Both the position numbers and the translations under genes were made by a program. Shown one piece after another: positions 4,613 through 20,927 of a stretch of DNA of 30,300 bases (the stretch's first letter is position 1; each line of letters starts with the position of its first letter). The DNA is taken from UHGV virus genome UHGV-1280366, one strand, 5' to 3'. A model generated the notes under the pieces. That model was not told where the DNA came from. It ran no database searches and saw only the letters and a program-made list of their open reading frames with translations. This stretch comes from a virus.

Positions 4613-5053
4613 CTATTCACAATTAGTGATGGCGTATGTATCAAATATATTGCCATCACTAAATACATACCTATACTCAATCTCTCCGCCAAGGTGAATA
4701 AATGCTTTCATTTGCCTGTTGGAGCAAATGCTCGATTTTGAATAATTTCGCATTACACTCTTTAATTTATTTTCTAAGGTTACATCACCATTATAAACTT
4801 TTGATAAATAGCTGTTGTTGTAATTAAGATGCGCTACAACTAAGAGTTTGTTTAGTATTGCATTTATTGAAACAATAGACATATTATCATTCAATTTTAT
4901 GGGAAGTGACTTTCCTGCTTCTGATGCAATTTTGTTTGCATGTGCACACATATCCTCATTTATTAAATTCTTAAAACATATGTCGTTTGCAAACGAAAAA
5001 ATTGGTAGGATAAACAAAACGGTAGCTGTAATAGCGTGCATCGGCTTAATCAT
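4613..5053 (-). CDS. small hypothetical protein with predicted N-terminal signal peptide (MHAITATVLFILPIFSFA); moron-like
   Basis: ORF in a visibly AT-rich stretch (about 4620-5050) unlike the flanking phage genes; hydrophobic N-terminus ending in A-x-A-like site. Alternative start at 5041. Diverges from the next gene with almost no spacer. Confidence 0.45.
   Translation of the reverse strand: MIKPMHAITATVLFILPIFSFANDICFKNLINEDMCAHANKIASEAGKSLPIKLNDNMSIVSINAILNKLLVVAHLNYNNSYLSKVYNGDVTLENKLKSVMRNYSKSSICSNRQMKAFIHLGGEIEYRYVFSDGNIFDTYAITNCE
4623..4662. repeat. 11-bp perfect inverted repeat (ttagtgatggc / gccatcactaa) with 18-nt spacer
   Basis: Seen directly, at the convergent junction of the 1129-aa gene and the minus-strand gene 4613-5053; no flanking T-tract. 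Confidence 0.6.
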
Positions 5054-5065
5054 TAGGTGACCTTT

Positions 5066-5515
5066 ATGTTCAAGAAGATGATCAACAGATTAATCGGTGG
5101 TAAGGAGGTTAGCAATAAAATTCAACCTCTTATCTTTAAGGATAACTTTTCAGCTTTTGAGTATGCGTGTAAGTATCTTGACACAAGCCTTTCAGCCAAT
5201 AAACCAATGCCAGCCATCATCATACCTGGTCCCAGTGGGGAACAGCCAGTTTTGCTGGATTCTGGAAGACAAAGGGCAATGCTGAAGGTGTGCTCAGCTG
5301 ATGGTGGATTTTTTGTTATTGCCGATTCATCTTACAGCAAAGGACCAAAGCTGAGGATTGGTGATCTTGTTGCTTGGTTGCCTGTGAGTTATGCCGAAGA
5401 ATTAACGGATAAAATAGAAGATCCTCGCTCCGCTATGGTTGGCTTTATATTGGGAACCATTCATCCTGAACTAACATCTACTGGCTGGAAGGGTAAAGAA
5501 AGATTTCGCAAGTAG
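5066..5515 (+). CDS. hypothetical protein (about 149 aa)
   Basis: ORF; track start 5057 is GTG, so ATG 5066 was chosen, preceded by AGGTGA 6 nt upstream; followed by an intrinsic terminator. Confidence 0.5.
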   Translation: MFKKMINRLIGGKEVSNKIQPLIFKDNFSAFEYACKYLDTSLSANKPMPAIIIPGPSGEQPVLLDSGRQRAMLKVCSADGGFFVIADSSYSKGPKLRIGDLVAWLPVSYAEELTDKIEDPRSAMVGFILGTIHPELTSTGWKGKERFRK

Positions 5516-5619: not shown

Positions 5620-6252
5620 TTAATGCAGTTTATCTTTGCTTATAACCAGTAGTCTGTGGGTATGCACATCTTTATCACTGCCCCAACAGAAATCAGCCCA
5701 CTGGCTATAGAAATCATCCCATGATGTCATGAAGCTAAGAGGTCTATCTTCTTCAGAGCCATCTGAAACGTATACATTATATCCCGGGGTGTTTATAGCC
5801 CAAGAAATCATTCTTTCCCAGAATCTTCTCCCATCGATTGTTTGTTGCTCATCAGATACAACGATCGCATATTGCTCTAGGAAGAACTGAAAAAAAATCT
5901 GAGGCAAACCATGAACAGCACGGTCATGAATAACATTAGGCGTACGCCATACCATGATCTGCGTACATGTTCTTTTGGCTTCGACGATATCTTCCCGAAA
6001 GATTAACTTAACCGCATACACCGTTTCTGGAGTATCGCTGGTAGTAATCATTCTGTAATGATCGCCATTACAAGATTTTACAAGGCGATAACCATAAGGT
6101 GTTGTGAATCCCGGAAGAACGAAATCAACCACACCTTTCGCTAAGTAGCTTTCGGTGTGACTAGTGTTCTTCTCAGACATGTTCAGTTTTCTATCGAAAT
6201 CTGCTTCTGGGATAATGTATGGCATCGCTTTTCTTGTTGTATTTGTTTTCAT
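5620..6252 (-). CDS. hypothetical protein (210 aa), accessory island
   Basis: ORF with ATG at 6252 and GGAGG 6 nt upstream on the minus strand; bracketed by a terminator and an upstream TTACC-N5-GGTAA palindrome. No family recognised. Confidence 0.6.
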   Translation of the reverse strand: MKTNTTRKAMPYIIPEADFDRKLNMSEKNTSHTESYLAKGVVDFVLPGFTTPYGYRLVKSCNGDHYRMITTSDTPETVYAVKLIFREDIVEAKRTCTQIMVWRTPNVIHDRAVHGLPQIFFQFFLEQYAIVVSDEQQTIDGRRFWERMISWAINTPGYNVYVSDGSEEDRPLSFMTSWDDFYSQWADFCWGSDKDVHTHRLLVISKDKLH

Positions 6253-6311: not shown

Positions 6312-6326
6312 TTACCCGTAAGGTAA
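6312..6326. promoter_or_regulatory. palindromic motif TTACC-cgtaa-GGTAA(TAT), copy 1 of 3
   Basis: Seen directly, about 60 bp upstream of minus-strand gene 5620-6252; same motif at 7372-7386 and 7754-7768. Confidence 0.35.
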
Positions 6327-6391: not shown

Positions 6392-7102
6392 TCAGAAGAA
6401 CCCTGCCTTGTCGTTGATGTACTCCGCGTGCGTCTGGATATCACGCAGGCATTTGCTCACACCGACGATGTAGCAGAACATGGTGGTCAGCTCCGCCGCC
6501 GCGCCCGATACGTCGTGCCCGTCTTCCTGTAACTGGTTCAGCAGATTCATCAGCAGTGAGTTTTCCGTCAGGCCGAGAACACCAGACGGAGAATGAATCA
6601 GGCTGCGGTAGCCGGGCTTCAGTGGGGCGCTGTAGGTTTTGTTCTCTATCTTCATTGCCTGCATCACTGCTGATGCTGTGGCGTTGGCTACCTGGTCGGC
6701 AACCATCTTTATGCGTTCTTCCTGCGGGAGCGAGTTTTTAATGTAACTTCCTGTGCGGCGGATCTGAGGAAGAACCTCACCTGTAACCCATTTACGAAAG
6801 CGGTAGGGGATAGTGCCTGGTGTTACTGCATCGCGGCAGCGGAGGATCAGTGTGTAGAGGCCTGACTCGGAGATGATGTTGATCTCTTTTACTCGGCTGT
6901 CAAAAATTGCACGATGTTCATGCCCTATGTTGAACATAGACCTTTCATCATCATCCAGTTTTTCAAGTGATTGGGTGACGTTTTGGATACGCAGCGCACT
7001 ACAAACGTCTTGGGCTACAAACCATGGTTGGCCATCGATAATGATGGAACGGATAGGGTTAACAGATTCAAATTTGAAGATGGCAGTTTGAGCATTAGCC
7101 AT
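6392..7102 (-). CDS. Bro-N / KilA-N family antirepressor-like protein
   Basis: N-terminal region (FKFESVNPIRSIIIDGQPWFVAQDVCSALRI...) resembles Bro-N DNA-binding domains of phage antirepressors; start moved to MANAQ (ATG 7102) with GGAGATAA upstream. C-terminal domain is paralogous to the product of 7418-7675. Confidence 0.7.
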   Translation of the reverse strand: MANAQTAIFKFESVNPIRSIIIDGQPWFVAQDVCSALRIQNVTQSLEKLDDDERSMFNIGHEHRAIFDSRVKEINIISESGLYTLILRCRDAVTPGTIPYRFRKWVTGEVLPQIRRTGSYIKNSLPQEERIKMVADQVANATASAVMQAMKIENKTYSAPLKPGYRSLIHSPSGVLGLTENSLLMNLLNQLQEDGHDVSGAAAELTTMFCYIVGVSKCLRDIQTHAEYINDKAGFF

Positions 7103-7258
7103 GGTGGTTATCTCCACTTAGTGATTTTAATCACCACCGCAACGCCAATTACTGGTGGTGAACTGGACAAGGTTGGCGTACCGGCCTAAGTGGTACCGGC
7201 GTCCTTTCGGACCCCTGCCCAGCCCACCATAATTCGGATATAGCTGTGCTTAACGCAT

Positions 7259-7280
7259 AAAAAAACCACGTCTGGCGTGG
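7259..7280 (-). terminator. rho-independent terminator downstream of minus-strand gene 7418-7675
   Basis: CCACG-ccaga-CGTGG hairpin followed on the minus strand by seven T (A-run 7259-7265 on +). Confidence 0.55.
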
Positions 7281-7371
7281 TATGCGCCACTTAGTAACTC
7301 GGGACGCCAATCCCGGCACTGGATTTTGCCAGTGCCCGATTACTATGGCACAAGAGGAGTGCAATGTAAAT

Positions 7372-7386
7372 TTACCGCAAAGGTAA
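7372..7386. promoter_or_regulatory. palindromic motif TTACC-gcaaa-GGTAA(ATAT), copy 2 of 3
   Basis: Seen directly; between the stop of 7418-7675 and the terminator at 7259-7280. Confidence 0.3.
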
Positions 7387-7417: not shown

Positions 7418-7675
7418 TTATCTGGTTTGTTTTCGTAATTGTTCGGCACAATAGTCGAGATGTGTTTGCAGATCCTGCATAGACATCTGTGAGCTGGTGA
7501 CGTAGTTAATCAGTGCAGTCAGTTCGGCAAGTGGGCCATCGACATTAAATCCATCCTTATCGAGATCCCGGAGTAATTTCATCAAGTGCGATCCCTCCAC
7601 CAGTGACCTGACGCCTCCCGGCGTGTGAATCCTTTCGGTAAATCCGTCTTCCAGTGGATAGTGATACTGCTGCAT
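7418..7675 (-). CDS. short antirepressor C-terminal-domain paralog (about 85 aa), candidate SOS-regulated antirepressor
   Basis: Product aligns with the C-terminal 65 residues of the 6392-7102 protein (shared IH.P.GV..L.E.S.LM.LL..L..DG..V.G..AELT...Y...D.QTH). ATG 7675 chosen for GGAGAAG about 8 nt upstream; alternative ATG 7690. Confidence 0.6.
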   Translation of the reverse strand: MQQYHYPLEDGFTERIHTPGGVRSLVEGSHLMKLLRDLDKDGFNVDGPLAELTALINYVTSSQMSMQDLQTHLDYCAEQLRKQTR

Positions 7676-7694
7676 CTTAATCTTCTCCATGCAA

Positions 7695-7714
7695 TAACTG
7701 TATGTTTATACAGT
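7695..7714. promoter_or_regulatory. LexA (SOS) box, aaCTGTATGTTTATACAGta
   Basis: Matches CTGT-N8-ACAG with an AT-rich spacer (consensus TACTGTATATATATACAGTA); 5-20 bp upstream of the start codons of 7418-7675; overlaps a TATAAA -10-like hexamer on the minus strand. Confidence 0.6.
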
Positions 7715-7753
7715 AGCAAATAATTTGTTTGCTATCCAGCACGTTTTGCAAAT

Positions 7754-7768
7754 TACCTGAAAGGTAAT
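7754..7768. promoter_or_regulatory. palindromic motif TTACC-tgaaa-GGTAA(TAT), copy 3 of 3
   Basis: Seen directly, between the LexA-box gene and the tailspike gene (about 100 bp upstream of ATG 7872). Confidence 0.35.
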
Positions 7769-7871
7769 ATCTATTCATATTCACAGTCTTTCTATCCATA
7801 TGTGGTTTTTCAGGTAATAGAATAACCAGATATGCGGCGCAACGGGTGCTGCGACTATCTGGAGATTTAAC

Positions 7872-9980
7872 ATGACGGTCTCAACCAAAGTTGACCACAA
7901 CGAATACACAGGTAACGGCGTTACGACATCGTTTCCGTATACTTTTCGAATTTTCAGAAAATCAGACCTGGTTGTTCAGGTGTCTGACCTGAACGGGAAC
8001 GTAACAGAATTGGTTCTGGATACCGGTTATACGGTAATTGGGGTGGGAGCTTATAGTGGTGGTACAGTGGTTCTTCCGTCGCCGCTTGCTGCTGGCTGGC
8101 GAATCACTATAGAGCGTGTGCTTGATGTGGTGCAGGAGACTGACCTTCGAAATCAGGGGAATTTTTTTCCAGAAGTTCATGAGGATGCATTTGACTACCT
8201 GACGATGCTGATTCAGCAGTCTTTTTCTGGTCTATCTCTTGCACTCAGAAAGCCATCACGTTTATCAAATTATTATGATGCTCGTGATAACAGAATCCAA
8301 AACTTAGCAAGCCCAATTCTCCCGAACGATGGTGTAAACCGTAATTTTGTAGAAAACCTTTTTATTGATAAAAGCGCATCTGCTTCTGCATTGCGCTCTT
8401 TGCTGGAAAGCGCAGCTGGGGCTGGAATAATTGGTACATTGCAGGGATTAACCGTTCAGTCAGTTTTAGATAATGTAAAAATCCCACTGACGTCATTCGT
8501 GTTTTCTATTCCTGATGATTTTGCTAATGCAGATTCTTTAGCAGAATATCTTGAAAATAGATGCTATACCGGCACGCAAGTAATAGTACATGTCTCAGCA
8601 GGCACTCATAATTGGAATACTCTAAATAAGATTTTTGGGAAAGAGTGGGGTTTTGGCCGACTTAAATTTGTTGGTGAAGGAATGGATTTGACAATTATTC
8701 AGTTTCTTAAACAGGACGGAATTTATGCTGAAGCAGGTGAGTGTTATGGTCATGCGCCACAGTTTCCCGTGAGTGGTGGTGATATAATACCAATATTTAG
8801 TAATTTAACTATATCAGGAATTGACAGAGATTCAGGAATTGATGATCCATATCTTGATTCAATGGGGATAAGGGCGTTTGACGGCGGTGTTGTTGTACTT
8901 GATGAAAGCGTAAGAATAACTCAGTTTTCCAGGTGTGGAGTTATGGCTGAGAGGCATGGTATAGCTTTTGTTCCTGGGGTTAAAGTCGATACTACAGGTT
9001 CTGATTGTTTCGCTGCCTCTGAAGGTGGTTATATCTATTGTCCAGACTCTACAGCAAGCAACCCGAAAGGTCATTGCTACATCGCATATTCTGGAGGGCA
9101 GCTTTATATGCCTAACTGTATTGCTCAGAATGCAGAGACACACAACTCGTCAAATGTAGGGGGATCTGGTCTTGTGTTGACCGGAAGCAGTTACGCTTAC
9201 GCTATTAATCTTCAAACTAAAAACAATGCTCAACGTGGAATTAGTGTGGCGTTAGGGTCTTTTCTACGAGCTGACGGGTTTACTGAGAGTGAAAATATTC
9301 TACCTGTGACTGTTTCGCAGGGTTCCACGTTGGTTTCTCCAAATTGCACAATAAACAAACCAGATGCTCTTGCGCTTTTAATTGAGAAAGGAGGAAAGGC
9401 ATTTTTCCAGGTAGCAACAACTGATAAGTTTACTATGTATGGTAGAGCAACAGTACAGTCAATGGGGGTTCTTCATGCACCAGATGGCGACATAACGAAC
9501 AGTTCAGGCAATTCAATATCTGCAATTAACTCAACAGTTGACGTTGACAGAACAACTTTCCATGGTTCTCCTGCTGTAGCTATCTATGCCATGGATGGAG
9601 CGATGGTTAAATGTAGCAATGGAGAATCTCAGACAACTACAGGGACAACAATTATTGCTCAAAATGCAAAGGTTATCGCTGATGGCTTTAAGGTAAAAGG
9701 AAATCCATCAATAGGGTTTAGAGCAACTATGTCTGGAATAATTTCTGCGAAAAACACATCAGTTATCAAGGCCGGTCAATATGGTTACTTTTCTGAAAAT
9801 ATGGGGGCATTTATTGATGCTACAGGTGCTACAGTAGGAGATGCTTTCTCTGGTTTTAAAGCAATAAACGGAGCCAGAATTAATGCTACGCAATCAGATG
9901 CTACAGGATCATATACAGGAGGTGCTTATAGCCCATCAGTAAATTTAGCAGATGAAAAACTAACAATAATAATAAAGTAA
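7872..9980 (+). CDS. tailspike / tail fibre protein (702 aa)
   Basis: N-terminus (NEYTGNGVTTSFPYTFRIF...DLVVQV) carries the conserved podovirus tail-fibre/tailspike N-terminal adaptor motif; Gly/Ser/Thr-rich C-terminal 500 aa consistent with a beta-rich receptor-binding domain; GGAG RBS; last late gene before attP. Confidence 0.8.
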   Translation: MTVSTKVDHNEYTGNGVTTSFPYTFRIFRKSDLVVQVSDLNGNVTELVLDTGYTVIGVGAYSGGTVVLPSPLAAGWRITIERVLDVVQETDLRNQGNFFPEVHEDAFDYLTMLIQQSFSGLSLALRKPSRLSNYYDARDNRIQNLASPILPNDGVNRNFVENLFIDKSASASALRSLLESAAGAGIIGTLQGLTVQSVLDNVKIPLTSFVFSIPDDFANADSLAEYLENRCYTGTQVIVHVSAGTHNWNTLNKIFGKEWGFGRLKFVGEGMDLTIIQFLKQDGIYAEAGECYGHAPQFPVSGGDIIPIFSNLTISGIDRDSGIDDPYLDSMGIRAFDGGVVVLDESVRITQFSRCGVMAERHGIAFVPGVKVDTTGSDCFAASEGGYIYCPDSTASNPKGHCYIAYSGGQLYMPNCIAQNAETHNSSNVGGSGLVLTGSSYAYAINLQTKNNAQRGISVALGSFLRADGFTESENILPVTVSQGSTLVSPNCTINKPDALALLIEKGGKAFFQVATTDKFTMYGRATVQSMGVLHAPDGDITNSSGNSISAINSTVDVDRTTFHGSPAVAIYAMDGAMVKCSNGESQTTTGTTIIAQNAKVIADGFKVKGNPSIGFRATMSGIISAKNTSVIKAGQYGYFSENMGAFIDATGATVGDAFSGFKAINGARINATQSDATGSYTGGAYSPSVNLADEKLTIIIK

Positions 9981-10077
9981 GCAATATGCTATAGTTCATG
10001 ACTTATTAATGATAACTATATGCACAAAGCTTTGCACTTGATTGCAATGCTTTGTGCCATTCTATAGTTAAGGTGGA
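9981..10077. other. candidate attP region between convergent tailspike and int genes
   Basis: 97-bp AT-rich spacer with ctatagtt direct repeats (9989-9996, 10061-10068) and a 9-bp inverted repeat GCACAAAGC...GCTTTGTGC; position by analogy to lambda/P22 attP adjacent to the int 3' end. Core not identifiable without attB. Confidence 0.35.
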
Positions 10078-11236
10078 TCACTCCACCTTTTCATCAAGCC
10101 AGTCCGCCCACCACTGCATCATTTCTCTGCGCTTATCTAGATACTGAGCATGGTTGTAAATACCGCGCACAGATCCGCCGTTGGCATGTGCCAGTTGCAC
10201 TTCAATAGCGTCAGCAGGCCATTCATGCTCGTTCATAATCGTGCTGAATTCATGCCTGAATCCGTGACCGCTTTCCAGACCTTCATAGCCGATTTGTTTG
10301 ATCACAAGTAGCACCGCGTTCTCGCAGATTGGCTTCTTCTTATCGTTGCGTCCGGCAAAAACAAACTCTGATACTGGTTTAGTGATGGAGCTTAGCGTAG
10401 TGAGAAGTTCAACCACCTGGTCTGACATCGGGACCACATGAATTTTGCGTCCCTTCATCACACTGGCGTCGATGGTGATAATCCTGTTTTCAAAATCGAC
10501 GTTCTTCCATTGCATGGAGCGAAGCTCTTTCGTTCTTAGGGCTGTGTAGCGTAAAACTTTGGTCGCAATGAGCGATACGATACTTCCTGAAAATGTTGCC
10601 AGTGCTTTGTTGAATGCCGGGATCTGGTCTGCAGGAAGAAACGGGAAGTTCTTCTTGCGGTATCCCTTCATGGCGTCAGCAAGGTCAGGTGCCGGGTTAT
10701 ATTTAGCCCTACCAGTGACAATAGCGTAACGGAAAACCTCGCCGCATCTTCTGCGGGCTTTGTTGGCTCGCTCCATTGCACCGCGATCTTCAAATCTGCG
10801 GATTACTTCCAGCAGTTGCATCGGCTCAATATCCAGAATCTCGAGACCGCCGATGATGGGTAAAATGTCGTCATCAAACATTTTGGCAAGTTCAGTCGCA
10901 TACCCTACAGACCAGACTTGCTTCTTGTGCTCGTACCATTCCTTGTAAATGGCGCTAAAGGAATTGTTGTTAGACGAAGCCTTTTTCGCTTTTACCGGAT
11001 CTATGCCAACCGAGATGTCTTTCCTCGCAGTCCATGCTCTATCCCTTGCCTCCTGCAAAGTCATAAGCGGATATTTTCCGACAGTCAGGATTTTCTCCTT
11101 ACCGTCAATCTTGTAGCGAAGCTGCCATACCTTTTTCCCGGATACAGGGACATAAAGATACAGGCCATTACCATCGAGAAGGCGGTATGGTTTTTCTTTC
11201 GGCTTTGCTGCTTCAATCTGCTTAACGGTTAGCATG
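10078..11236 (-). CDS. int: tyrosine integrase (P4-like, N-terminal arm-binding domain)
   Basis: N-terminus MLTVKQIEAAKPKEKPYRLLDGNGLYLYV matches the arm-binding domain of P4-family integrases; C-terminal region has catalytic-domain features (HGFRH, tyrosine near the C-terminus). Track start 11271 is GTG; ATG 11236 chosen. Confidence 0.9.
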
Positions 11237-11500
11237 GGTAAAAATCCGGTGGGTAAAATTATTTTATCCACTTTTTACCCGTCATGGTGTGCGGCTGTCA
11301 ACGATCTGACGCGAACCATGACGAACCGTGAATATACGGAAGGCTTGATATTCAGGGGATTTTGCGGACTGGTGCGGATGGGAGCGAACTGATAAATGGT
11401 GTCCCCTGCAGACATCTACTTGAGGCAGCAGGGGATTGATTGGAATGGTGTTTTTGAGATGTGAGAAATATTTTACCCGCTATTTTACCCATTGGCGCGG
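11233..11500. repeat. cluster of GGGTAAAA / TTTTACCC octamer repeats around the int start and the int-xis spacer
   Basis: At least five copies in both orientations (about 11235, 11252, 11273, 11473, 11486); possible Int/Xis or regulator binding sites. Confidence 0.4.
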
Positions 11501-18077: not shown

Positions 18078-18210
18078 TTTTTGGGACTCCTGGCTGATTA
18101 AGTATGTCGATAAGGCGTTTCCACCCGTTACGTAATTTACGGGTGATTCGTTCAAGTAAAGATTCGGAAGGGCAGCCAGCAACAGGCCACCCTGCAATGG
18201 CATATTGCAT
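18070..18210 (-). CDS. cIII: CIII protease-inhibitor (stabilises CII)
   Basis: MQYAIAGWPVAGCPSESLLERITRKLRNGWKRLIDILNQPGVPKNG is near-identical to lambda CIII as recalled; AAGGAG RBS. Confidence 0.8.
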   Translation of the reverse strand: MQYAIAGWPVAGCPSESLLERITRKLRNGWKRLIDILNQPGVPKNG

Positions 18211-18270
18211 GGTGTGCTCCTTATTTATACATAACGAAAACGCCTCGAGTGAAGCGTTATTGGTATGCAT

Positions 18271-19299: not shown

Positions 19300-19380
19300 T
19301 GATGGCTTAAATTTAAGATCTCTTTAATTAATGGTCAAGAGTATTTTTGAAGAAAACTTAAATTTTCTTTCGTAACTTAA
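19300..19380 (-). promoter_or_regulatory. pL promoter with OL operators
   Basis: Minus strand: -35 TTGACC (19337-19332), 17-bp spacer, -10 TAAATT (19314-19309); overlapping ATTTAAG...CTTTAAT-type palindromes resembling P22-type operators. Confidence 0.6.
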
Positions 19381-19429: not shown

Positions 19430-20080
19430 TTATGGAAGGTTTGCTAGTTTTGCATCGACAACTACGCCGATGATTTTGCAGTTTCCGTTGATCTCGATCA
19501 TCGGATATTGTGGGTTAAGTGGTTTTAGAAACTTCCTGCCTGCATCAATAACTAACTTCTTGAAAGTTGCCTCGTTTTCTCCTTCGAGCTTTGCAACTAC
19601 CAGTTTCCCGTTACGCGGCTCTACTTCAGGATCGACAAGTATTATCATTCCTTCAGGGATACTGAGACCGGCCGGAGCCGTCATTGAGTCTCCCTTCACG
19701 TCCAACCAAAACGAATCTTCTGAACAGTCTACGGTTGTATCGTACCAGTTATCTATTGCACGCTTATGATATGGTTCTACAGCTTCCATCCAGCATCCTG
19801 CGCTCACCCAGCTAATCAGAGGGAATGACCCTCTTGGATCATGCCTACTGTGATAGGCAATGTTTGAAAGACTTTCCTCTCCTTTCATCAGATAGTCAGG
19901 GGAACACTTCAACGCATTAGCCAGGGCGAGAAGATTCTCTCCATTTGGCTCTGTCTCAGAGCGTTCCCACTGAGATATGGCAACATTAGACACGCCGACC
20001 ATCTTTCCAAGTGCGGCCTGCCTGATCTTGAGTTCTTTTCTCCGAGCGCGAATGCGCTCTCCCATCAATTGAGTTTTCAT
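19430..20080 (-). CDS. c2: c2/CI repressor (HTH plus LexA-like S24 autopeptidase domain)
   Basis: Protein is near-identical to P22 c2 as recalled (MKTQLMGERIRARR...VVDAKLANLP); Ala-Gly cleavage site and Ser/Lys peptidase domain. Confidence 0.95.
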   Translation of the reverse strand: MKTQLMGERIRARRKELKIRQAALGKMVGVSNVAISQWERSETEPNGENLLALANALKCSPDYLMKGEESLSNIAYHSRHDPRGSFPLISWVSAGCWMEAVEPYHKRAIDNWYDTTVDCSEDSFWLDVKGDSMTAPAGLSIPEGMIILVDPEVEPRNGKLVVAKLEGENEATFKKLVIDAGRKFLKPLNPQYPMIEINGNCKIIGVVVDAKLANLP

Positions 20081-20150
20081 AGTTAAGACATCTTAAATAA
20101 ACTTGACTTAAGATTCCTTTAGTGGATAATTTAAGTATTCTTTAATTTCG
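20081..20150. promoter_or_regulatory. OR operator region with pR (-35 TTGACT 20103-20108, -10 GATAAT 20125-20130); divergent pRM expected
   Basis: Three P22-type operator palindromes (e.g. AGTTAAGACATCTTAAAT, AATTTAAGTATTCTTTAATT) between c2 and cro; sigma-70 hexamers with 16-bp spacing. Confidence 0.65.
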
Positions 20151-20454: not shown

Positions 20455-20748
20455 ATGGTTCGTGCAAACAAACGCAACGAGGCTCTAAGAATCGAGAGTG
20501 CGTTGCTTAACAAAATCGCAATGCTTGGAACTGAGAAGACAGCGGAAGCTGTGGGAGTTGATAAGTCGCAGATCAGCAGGTGGAAGAGGGATTGGATTCC
20601 AAAGTTCTCAATGCTGCTTGCTGTTCTTGAATGGGGCGTCGTTGACGACGATATGGCTCGATTGGCACGACAAGTTGCTTCGATTCTCACCAATAAAAAA
20701 CGCCCGGCGGCAACCGAGCGTTCTGAACAAATCCAGATGGAGTTCTGA
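20455..20748 (+). CDS. cII: CII transcriptional activator
   Basis: [97 protein letters not shown] is essentially lambda CII as recalled; the track ORF from 20368 is an upstream extension across nutR. Confidence 0.9.
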
Positions 20749-20780
20749 GGTCATTACTGGATCTATCAACAGGAGTCATT

Positions 20781-20927
20781 ATGACAAAACAACTCAGTCC
20801 TTACCAGGACAAAATTCACAAACACATACTACGTGATCGCTTCCTGTCCAGCTTCAAGCAGCCTGGTCGATTCCGGGCTGAGTTGGAAAAAGTGAAGCTG
20901 ATGCAGAAGGAGAAAGGTCATGAGTAA
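20781..20927 (+). CDS. small ORF (48 aa) between cII and O, possibly P22 orf48-like
   Basis: ATG with AGGAG RBS; stop overlaps the O start region; not in the ORF track (under 60 aa). Confidence 0.4.

Follow-up and report, generated by a model that had tools for sequence, protein, structure and literature searches.

The 30,300-nucleotide stretch of virus DNA analysed here (UHGV virus genome UHGV-1280366; the whole of it is called the window below) contains a short minus-strand gene, ant, that encodes an 85 amino acid (aa) antirepressor and is preceded by an operator for the host SOS repressor LexA. This LexA box is real and strongly conserved, and the module behind it is, by its sequence, the already characterised LexA-controlled Ant of epsilon15/phiV10/SPC32H-type phages (Uetakevirus). 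We consider it probable that in the window this LexA-repressed Uetakevirus module has been displaced into a hybrid phage whose immunity is of the P22 C2 type and which lacks Rep, the repressor on which Ant acts. An original prediction, made from the sequence alone, had proposed an SOS-controlled antirepressor module at this place, and that proposal is supported; its interpretation as a whole is only partly supported, and it missed both the hybrid nature of the genome and an isrK/C4 RNA module downstream of ant. The features of the ant gene and its control region are as follows:

7418–7675, minus strand: ant, an 85-aa SPC32H-type antirepressor consisting of a stand-alone "AntC" domain (SPC32H Ant homology, PDB 5D50, PHROG 450)
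7685–7688, minus strand: Shine-Dalgarno sequence GGAG, 9 nt upstream of ATG 7675, read from the sequence
7696–7715, no strand assigned: LexA operator (SOS box), AACTGTATGTTTATACAGTA on the plus strand and TACTGTATAAACATACAGTT in the ant sense (minus)
7710–7738, minus strand: inferred ant promoter, with −35 TGGATA (7738–7733), a 17-nt spacer and −10 TACTGT (7715–7710), the latter being the left arm of the box

An SPC32H-type antirepressor

In tblastn comparisons the 85-aa protein is 88% identical, at the same length, to the SPC32H gene product annotated ant, and 84–100% identical to unnamed proteins of phages epsilon15, phiV10, TL-2011b, EC.W1-9 and HEMP4; the copies in TL-2011b and EC.W1-9, both coliphages, share 84 of its 85 residues. 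It also matches chain E ("Anti-repressor protein") of PDB entry 5D50 over residues 2–84 with an E value of 4e-47. That entry also contains the SPC32H repressor, with Ant bound to Rep, and a second entry, 5D4Z, comprises Rep residues 92–198. The target of the small protein, described in the original prediction as unknown, is thus the epsilon15-type Rep, as seen in the crystallised complex with the SPC32H orthologue. The earlier observation that ant encodes a domain shared with its Bro-N neighbour is borne out, since the last 78 residues of the Bro-N protein align with Ant (42% identity, E 7e-17).

The protein gave no Pfam match above threshold, and thus has no P22_AR_N or P22_AR_C domain, and it is assigned to PHROG 450, a family without assigned function. 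An index of public assemblies has the exact 85-aa sequence in 17,548 blocks, and homologues, mostly labelled hypothetical, are present in Escherichia, Salmonella, Citrobacter, Klebsiella, Enterobacter and Yersinia. Homology to two better known antirepressors was considered and rejected: P22 Ant (BLASTP E 16; hhalign probability of 0.07% for AntC against P22_AR_C) and 186 Tum (BLASTP E 0.061, 14 identities over 46 residues). AntC domains are also found fused to P22_AR_N-type and AntA-type N-terminal domains (L006 31300–32244, which is TL-2011b gp42, and L016 10576–11232), and a single Uetakevirus can encode up to three AntC proteins: one behind the LexA box, one downstream of C4 and one beside an Arc-like gene.

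Work on the SPC32H system by Kim & Ryu (2013, J Virol 87:11775), followed by that of Kim et al. (2016), reportedly showed that the SPC32H Rep stays uncleaved in the SOS response and is inactivated instead by Ant, whose gene LexA represses. Reviews and citing papers agree with this LexA/Ant/Rep account (PMC7380047; PMC9638917; bioRxiv 2025.11.27.690993), and one review describes the inactivation of the repressor by LexA-controlled Ant as occurring through protein-protein contact (PMC7380047).

A conserved LexA operator upstream of ant

The original prediction had placed a LexA-like 20-mer at 7695–7714; it is present, with its true position one base to the right at 7696–7715. This box is the single occurrence of CTGT-N8-ACAG in the window, and it differs from the 20-bp LexA consensus at three positions, a quality of match that was equalled in none of 100 shuffles. 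The weight-matrix scoring that had been proposed as a check was carried out with a non-curated matrix made for the purpose from 20 LexA sites of E. coli, with which the box scores 25.9 bits, the training sites score 13.0–25.7 bits, the runner-up in the window scores 15.0 bits and the maximum over 200 shuffles is 20.4 bits. The runner-up, TACTGGATCTATCAACAGGA at 20755–20774, is within the range of weak genuine sites and below the best shuffle, and sits between an open reading frame (ORF) that ends at 20748 and one that starts at 20920.

The CTG-N10-CAG form of the box is kept 19–22 nt from the ant ATG in 93 of 97 relatives, taken from a sample of 35 phage records together with 80 loci from IMG/VR and 10 from genomes; its position is conserved across genera while its spacer sequence varies. 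The SPC32H box (TACTGTATGTTTATACAGTG) is likewise found at this place, ahead of GGAG and ATG, and the box of EC.W1-9 is identical to that of the window (TACTGTATAAACATACAGTT). Phages SPC32H and SPC32N differ at 2 positions in the 601 bases compared around ant, and one of these is the G in the CTG arm of the LexA box. Mutation of the LexA box reportedly makes ant expression constitutive in SPC32N, and the variant base matches that phenotype.

Three variations of the box were seen in passing. The 4-bp core of its spacer (within window positions 7701–7710) occurs in reverse-complement pairs, AAAT (64 loci) with ATTT (14 loci) and AAAC (12 loci, including the window) with GTTT (SPC32H), a pattern suggesting that the centre of the palindrome has flipped and not that its bases changed one by one. 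In Klebsiella phage Kp4865-1 (L008) the box is ATATGTATATATATACAGTA, with a left arm of ATG and not CTG, and LexA control may be weakened or altered in that lineage. Finally, an otherwise ordinary Uetakevirus contig (L037, IMGVR_UViG_2563366870_000004) has a 1.9-kb insertion inside the LexA box (L037 2923–4809), whose flanking alignments overlap by 8 bp (window 7702–7709) in the manner of a target-site duplication, and which cuts ant off from half of its operator. The insertion encodes a 172-aa passenger and a 406-aa protein that we take, from its N-terminal sequence, to be a predicted ISL3-type transposase.

The ant gene starts at ATG 7675, giving 7418–7675 and 85 aa, because the GGAG sequence serves this codon and the upstream ATG at 7690 is in frame in the window only through one extra T; SPC32H and those E. 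coli relatives with 19 nt between box and ATG have this earlier ATG in another frame. The GGAG is also kept in SPC32H, phiV10, TL-2011b and EC.W1-9. The distances of 5–20 bp from box to start given in the original prediction are correct (from the minus-strand end of the box, 20 nt to ATG 7675 and 5 nt to ATG 7690), as is the minus-strand TATAAA that overlaps the box, at 7710–7705.

A consensus promoter scan called no ant promoter over the box, and the hexamers listed above are proposed from conservation and from the annotation of the phage 186 p95 promoter, which has the same geometry and a −10 of TACTGT. The arrangement TGGATA-N17-TACTGT is shared by the window and SPC32H; Klebsiella phage Kp4865-1 has TGGAAA-N17-TATATG. 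The TATAAA at 7710–7705 is an alternative −10, and with either choice the box would cover the −10 region. When the p95 region of 186 (L112 3510–3570) is set beside window 7696–7752, the upstream stretch TTTGCCAATACGTGCT of 186 also resembles TTTGCAAAACGTGCT of the window, with 23 extra bases between TTTGCAAAACGTGCT and the LexA box in the window relative to 186; common ancestry of the ant and p95 promoters is possible.

A complete C2-type switch and no Rep

The features of the immunity region of the window are the following:

19430–20080, minus strand: P22 C2-type repressor, 216 aa, with HTH_3 and Peptidase_S24 domains, an Ala94-Gly95 cleavage site, Ser in GDSMT and Lys in TFKKL
20081–20146, no strand assigned: three P22-type OR operators (ANTNAAG-N4-CTTNANT) in the c2/cro gap, by motif match
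19311–19363: two P22-type OL operators (ANTNAAG-N4-CTTNANT), by motif match

The original prediction was right that the window carries a P22 c2-type repressor with an autocleavage domain: Pfam finds both HTH_3 and Peptidase_S24, and the cleavage determinants are present. Its N-terminal domain matches PDB 1ADR (E 3e-37), and its C-terminal domain aligns with that of lambda CI and keeps the Ala-Gly site (SAGCW), the serine (GDSMT) and the lysine (TFKKL). C2 thus has all the determinants of RecA-stimulated autocleavage and is predicted to be cleavable. No P22-type operators were found near ant, and C2 therefore does not appear to control ant; the C2/Cro switch of the window looks complete on its own.

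The repressor of SPC32H is a different protein. The 198-aa Rep has HTH_3 domains but lacks S24, and it is not significantly similar to the C2 of the window. A tblastn search of the 30.3 kb with the SPC32H and phiV10 Reps (E ≤ 0.01) found no epsilon15-type Rep in the window. A Rep with two helix-turn-helix (HTH) domains is co-encoded in all 35 of the phage records that encode Ant, and among 50,697 phage records the AntC domain, alone or fused, is found only in this Rep-bearing type of phage; neither the integrase nor the C2 of the window is present in any of the 80 IMG/VR Ant loci. What is new here is the pairing of Ant with a C2-type switch, which is unreported and depends on the uncorroborated junction described next.

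A probable Uetakevirus/P22-like hybrid joined within the tailspike gene

The two parts of the window meet in one gene:

7872–9980, plus strand: chimeric tailspike gene, matching that of Uetakevirus contig L037 as far as about 9754 and that of a P22-like prophage (L009) from about 8616, with the junction in the overlap

Positions 1 to about 8200 match Uetakevirus DNA (97.9% identity to EC.W1-9 and 96–97% to HEMP4), and positions 10000–30300 match P22/HK620-like lambdoid phages. Between them, the tailspike region is 98.2% identical to L037 over 7702–9754, and the tailspike and IntS genes are 95.9% identical to the P22-like prophage at argW (L009) over 8616–11411. The tailspike gene is followed by IntS (10078–11484 region) and an attP that holds the 3' end of argW, and the order int-attP-xis is that of an excised genome. 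The window contains no tRNA genes; an annotated tRNA-Arg of H104 corresponds to argW in the chromosome, beside attB.

The window thus appears to be a Uetakevirus/P22-like hybrid joined within the tailspike gene. Searches for a second instance of the junction were negative: the exact tailspike protein has no record in 153 billion indexed gene positions, the junction was not found in 5,426 complete E. coli genomes, and neither IMG/VR nor the JGI metagenomes contain a 48-mer spanning the point where the L037 homology ends. The hybrid arrangement was seen in none of the 80 IMG/VR Ant loci and in none of 30 places around Ant, IntS and the 210-aa neighbour, all of which are ordinary. The junction could be a rare recombinant or an assembly chimera formed through the shared tailspike segment of about 1.1 kb, and the sequence fits both.

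An isrK/C4 RNA module and a second antirepressor gene downstream of ant

Downstream of ant on the minus strand are two RNA genes and the gene for the Bro-N protein, with the following features:

7342–7370, minus strand: candidate isrK promoter TTTACA-N17-(TG)CATAGT, with a predicted start near 7335
7259–7335, minus strand: isrK-type RNA (Rfam RF01394), 67.2 bits against a gathering score of 50
7296–7348, minus strand: c4-a1b1 motif, 44.3 bits against a gathering score of 46.7, overlapping isrK
7265–7281, minus strand: isrK intrinsic terminator, the sole minus-strand terminator in the interval from ant to the Bro-N gene
7151–7234, minus strand: C4 antisense RNA (Rfam RF01695), 66 bits against a gathering score of 45
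7186–7193 and 7173–7179, minus strand: C4 loops a' (CCACUUAG) and b' (ACGCCAA)
7287–7294 and 7304–7310, minus strand: C4 targets a1 and b1 in isrK, exact complements of the C4 loops
7114–7148, minus strand: C4 targets a2 (7114–7121) and b2 (7142–7148), exact complements of the C4 loops, a2 overlapping the GGAG Shine-Dalgarno sequence of the Bro-N gene
6392–7102, minus strand: Bro-N + AntC antirepressor-like gene, 236 aa from ATG 7102 (Pfam Bro-N; PHROG anti-repressor families)

The start of the isrK Rfam model, at 7335, agrees with the start predicted from the candidate promoter. Both phiV10 and Klebsiella phage Kp4865-1 share the order ant, isrK, C4, Bro-N, and the isrK and C4 RNAs are absent from SPC32H. 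The layout is that of the immI region of P1 and is homologous to isrK-orf45-anrP of Gifsy-1; the Bro-N gene corresponds to the C4-controlled genes for Gifsy-1 AnrP and P1 Ant. Since there is no terminator between the ant stop codon and isrK, the LexA-controlled ant transcript should extend into isrK, and we hypothesize that SOS is coupled to the C4 switch through this read-through.

Putative Rep operators

The Uetakevirus part of the window also contains a repeated palindrome:

7753–7767, no strand assigned: TTACC-N5-GGTAA, between ant and the tailspike gene, a putative orphan Rep operator
7372–7386, no strand assigned: TTACC-N5-GGTAA, abutting the −35 of the candidate isrK promoter
6312–6326, no strand assigned: TTACC-N5-GGTAA, upstream of gene 5620–6252 (minus strand; PHROG 1349, function unknown)

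These three copies compare with 0.03 expected in the window, and all of them are in the Uetakevirus part and none in the lambdoid half. SPC32H has 10 copies, including a tandem pair in the rep/cro gap and a further three immediately downstream of rep, and phiV10 has 8; in both of these genomes (L003 and L005) copies recur genome-wide at promoter-like positions. The N-terminal domain of Rep, including an ANLVNRW stretch, is conserved across genera although overall Rep identity is just 42%. From its distribution the palindrome is probably the operator of epsilon15-type Rep, and the three copies here would then be orphans without a cognate repressor in the window.

Comparison with known systems

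The window resembles SPC32H in its orthologous Ant, in the position of the LexA box, in the slot of ant divergent from the tailspike gene and in the TTACC-N5-GGTAA upstream. It differs in having P22 C2/Cro immunity in place of Rep, in the core of the box spacer (AAAC in the ant sense, i.e., reverse-complemented, against GTTT in SPC32H) and in the isrK/C4/Bro-N genes that follow ant. The E. coli Uetakeviruses phiV10, TL-2011b, EC.W1-9 and HEMP4, together with the very common phiV10-like prophages, have Ant proteins 98–100% identical, left-part DNA 94–98% identical and the same ant-isrK-C4-Bro-N order. All of them encode a two-HTH Rep of 194 aa and have an early region of the epsilon15 type, and lysis genes follow their tailspike gene, where the window instead has IntS, attP(argW), xis and a lambdoid early region.

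The original prediction had likened the module to Tum of coliphage 186, a comparison that holds for the operator, since the p95 LexA box (TACTGTATGTTTATACAGTA) is identical to that of the window at 19 of 20 positions, and fails for the protein, since Ant is not homologous to Tum, a 146-aa protein with a DinI-like C-terminus from a different phage lineage. In 186 p95-tum and in Fels-2/Gifsy, LexA represses a small antirepressor gene and the phage repressor itself is uncleaved. P22 (immI) and Phi24B share with the window a cleavable C2/CI-type repressor and an antirepressor gene beside the tailspike gene, and the coexistence of such a repressor with an antirepressor is therefore not new. P22 Ant, however, has P22_AR_N/P22_AR_C domains and is controlled by Mnt, Arc and sar RNA and not by LexA, and AntC is known to act solely on epsilon15-type Rep whereas P22 Ant acts on C2, and on lambda CI as well (PMC3064807). 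No Arc/Mnt-type regulators were found flanking ant; the neighbouring ORFs 4613–5053, 5057–5515 and 5620–6252 have no Pfam domain and belong to PHROGs of unknown function. Like the immI region of P1/P7 (c4, icd, ant) and isrK-orf45-anrP of Gifsy-1, the window has a1/b1, c4, a2/b2 over a ribosome-binding site, and an antirepressor, but unlike them it has this RNA module directly downstream of a LexA-controlled ant, and the regulated protein is a Bro-N + AntC fusion.

The favoured reading and its alternatives

If the LexA-repressed module has indeed been displaced into a C2-type hybrid, the events can be pictured as follows. In a lysogen, host LexA on the box at 7696–7715 would cover the ant −10 region and keep ant silent, and DNA damage, through RecA-dependent self-cleavage of LexA, would allow ant to be transcribed. 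In its native setting an Ant tetramer would bind the non-cleavable two-HTH Rep and remove it from its operators, leading to lytic growth. Recombination inside the tailspike gene would have joined the Uetakevirus virion/ant segment to a P22/HK620-like segment for integrase, immunity, replication and lysis, in which lysogeny would be held by the C2/Cro switch and the phage would be induced by cleavage of C2. Ant would then be switched on during SOS with no partner in its own genome, and most likely it is a passenger that arrived without its target. It could still act in trans on phiV10-like prophages, which are very common in E. coli, or the locus could act through the downstream RNA, with isrK decoys titrating the C4 that blocks the Bro-N ribosome-binding site.

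Several points weigh against this reading. An intact Ant and an intact box would fit retained function as well, and antirepressors of other families reportedly act on several repressors (Lemire et al., 2011, PMC3121763), a precedent by which Ant might bind C2. LexA control and Ant activity are carried over to the window by extrapolation from an orthologue with 88% identity. The window spans 30.3 kb, and the remainder of the genome might in principle hold a Rep gene. The proposed ant promoter hexamers are weak and were derived by comparison, and the operator role suggested for the TTACC-N5-GGTAA palindrome comes from its distribution.

It is possible, and compatible with displacement of the module, that RNA is the main output of the LexA promoter, in a two-step SOS cascade in which the isrK 3' end of the ant transcript titrates C4 and so allows translation of the Bro-N/AntC protein. 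The first terminator after the ant stop (7418) is at 7281–7265, both pairs of C4 targets are exact complements of its loops with a2 over the Bro-N Shine-Dalgarno sequence, the gene order is shared with phiV10 and Kp4865-1, and in Gifsy-1 translation of anrP rises 140-fold when IsrK is provided in trans (PMC4825925). On the other side, isrK apparently has its own candidate promoter, SPC32H functions on ant alone without isrK or C4, and the Bro-N protein has the same AntC domain and would face the same missing target in the hybrid.

We think it unlikely that the LexA/Ant module has been kept intact because it still works in the window, either by inactivation of C2 through Ant or through Bro-N/AntC (released when an SOS-driven ant-isrK transcript titrates C4), or by lifting the repression that Rep from phiV10-like prophages resident in the host would exert at the orphan operators.

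That the window is an assembly artefact, in which a Uetakevirus and a P22-like phage were joined in silico through about 1.1 kb of tailspike gene and Ant and C2 were never together, is likewise improbable. The two halves are linked solely by the shared segment 8616–9754, and the failure to find the junction in complete E. coli genomes, IMG/VR or the JGI metagenomes, the unrecorded tailspike protein and the unhybridised state of all 30 places examined are what such an artefact would give. Nonetheless, the tailspike reading frame is intact through the junction, the int-attP-xis order fits an excised circular genome (a real virion or a circular contig), the sequence itself has no misjoin signal, and podovirus lineages commonly exchange tailspike modules.

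That Ant or Bro-N/AntC also inactivates C2, and that the switch is then opened both by RecA-stimulated C2 cleavage and by LexA-gated antirepression, we regard as doubtful. The Ant module and C2 are both intact in the same window, the C-terminal domain of Rep that Ant binds and the N-terminal domain of C2 both have HTH_3 folds, and in P22 and the Stx phage Phi24B, where a cleavable repressor and an antirepressor coexist, Ant has been proposed to aid efficient induction (PMC7380047; PMC3064807). Those precedents, however, involve the P22 type of Ant and not AntC, which is unrelated to the P22 Ant C-terminal domain; among the 50,697 phage records AntC occurs 0 times with C2/CI-type immunity and always with Rep, C2 and Rep lack significant similarity, and the 84 of 85 residues shared with copies paired with a phiV10-type Rep argue that Ant has not been adapted to C2. 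In P22 itself an ant mutant is still SOS-inducible (PMC7380047). The earlier suggestion that two SOS-sensing routes to induction coexist in this phage presumes that Ant acts on C2, and it is unproven, given an Ant nearly identical to Rep-partnered copies, the absence of Rep and a complete C2/Cro switch.

Finally, that the palindrome upstream of ant is a chance LexA-like sequence or only a promoter, without LexA control, is effectively refuted by its conservation: CTGT-N8-ACAG does occur at least once in 29 of 100 shuffles, but the full 20-mer outscores every shuffle, its position is conserved across genera with a variable spacer, and it contains the SPC32H/SPC32N variant base.

Significance and other observations

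The ant module of the window is a further copy of a characterised and very widespread LexA-controlled antirepressor, and by itself adds little; its main practical value is for annotation, since most E. coli records still call the protein "hypothetical" and PHROG 450 lacks an assigned function. A genuine hybrid would amount to a natural experiment that parts an antirepressor from its repressor, and it could reveal whether antirepressor modules are tied to one immunity type or portable, and whether the SOS-driven ant transcript feeds the isrK/C4 switch that guards the second antirepressor. Should the module have kept a function there, module exchange would have given a C2-type phage a second input, gated by LexA, for induction or anti-immunity.

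Two further observations concern the lambdoid part and its relatives. A lambda CIII thermoregulator element (Rfam RF01804, 88.5 bits) is present at 18165–18223 on the minus strand, as is usual for a lambdoid early-left operon. Some P22-like argW prophages encode in immI an extra 213-aa protein with HTH_3 and Peptidase_S24 domains (L109 15599–16240 and L111 15586–16227), which adjoins a Bro-N + P22_AR_C antirepressor and could be a second cleavable regulator that controls ant.

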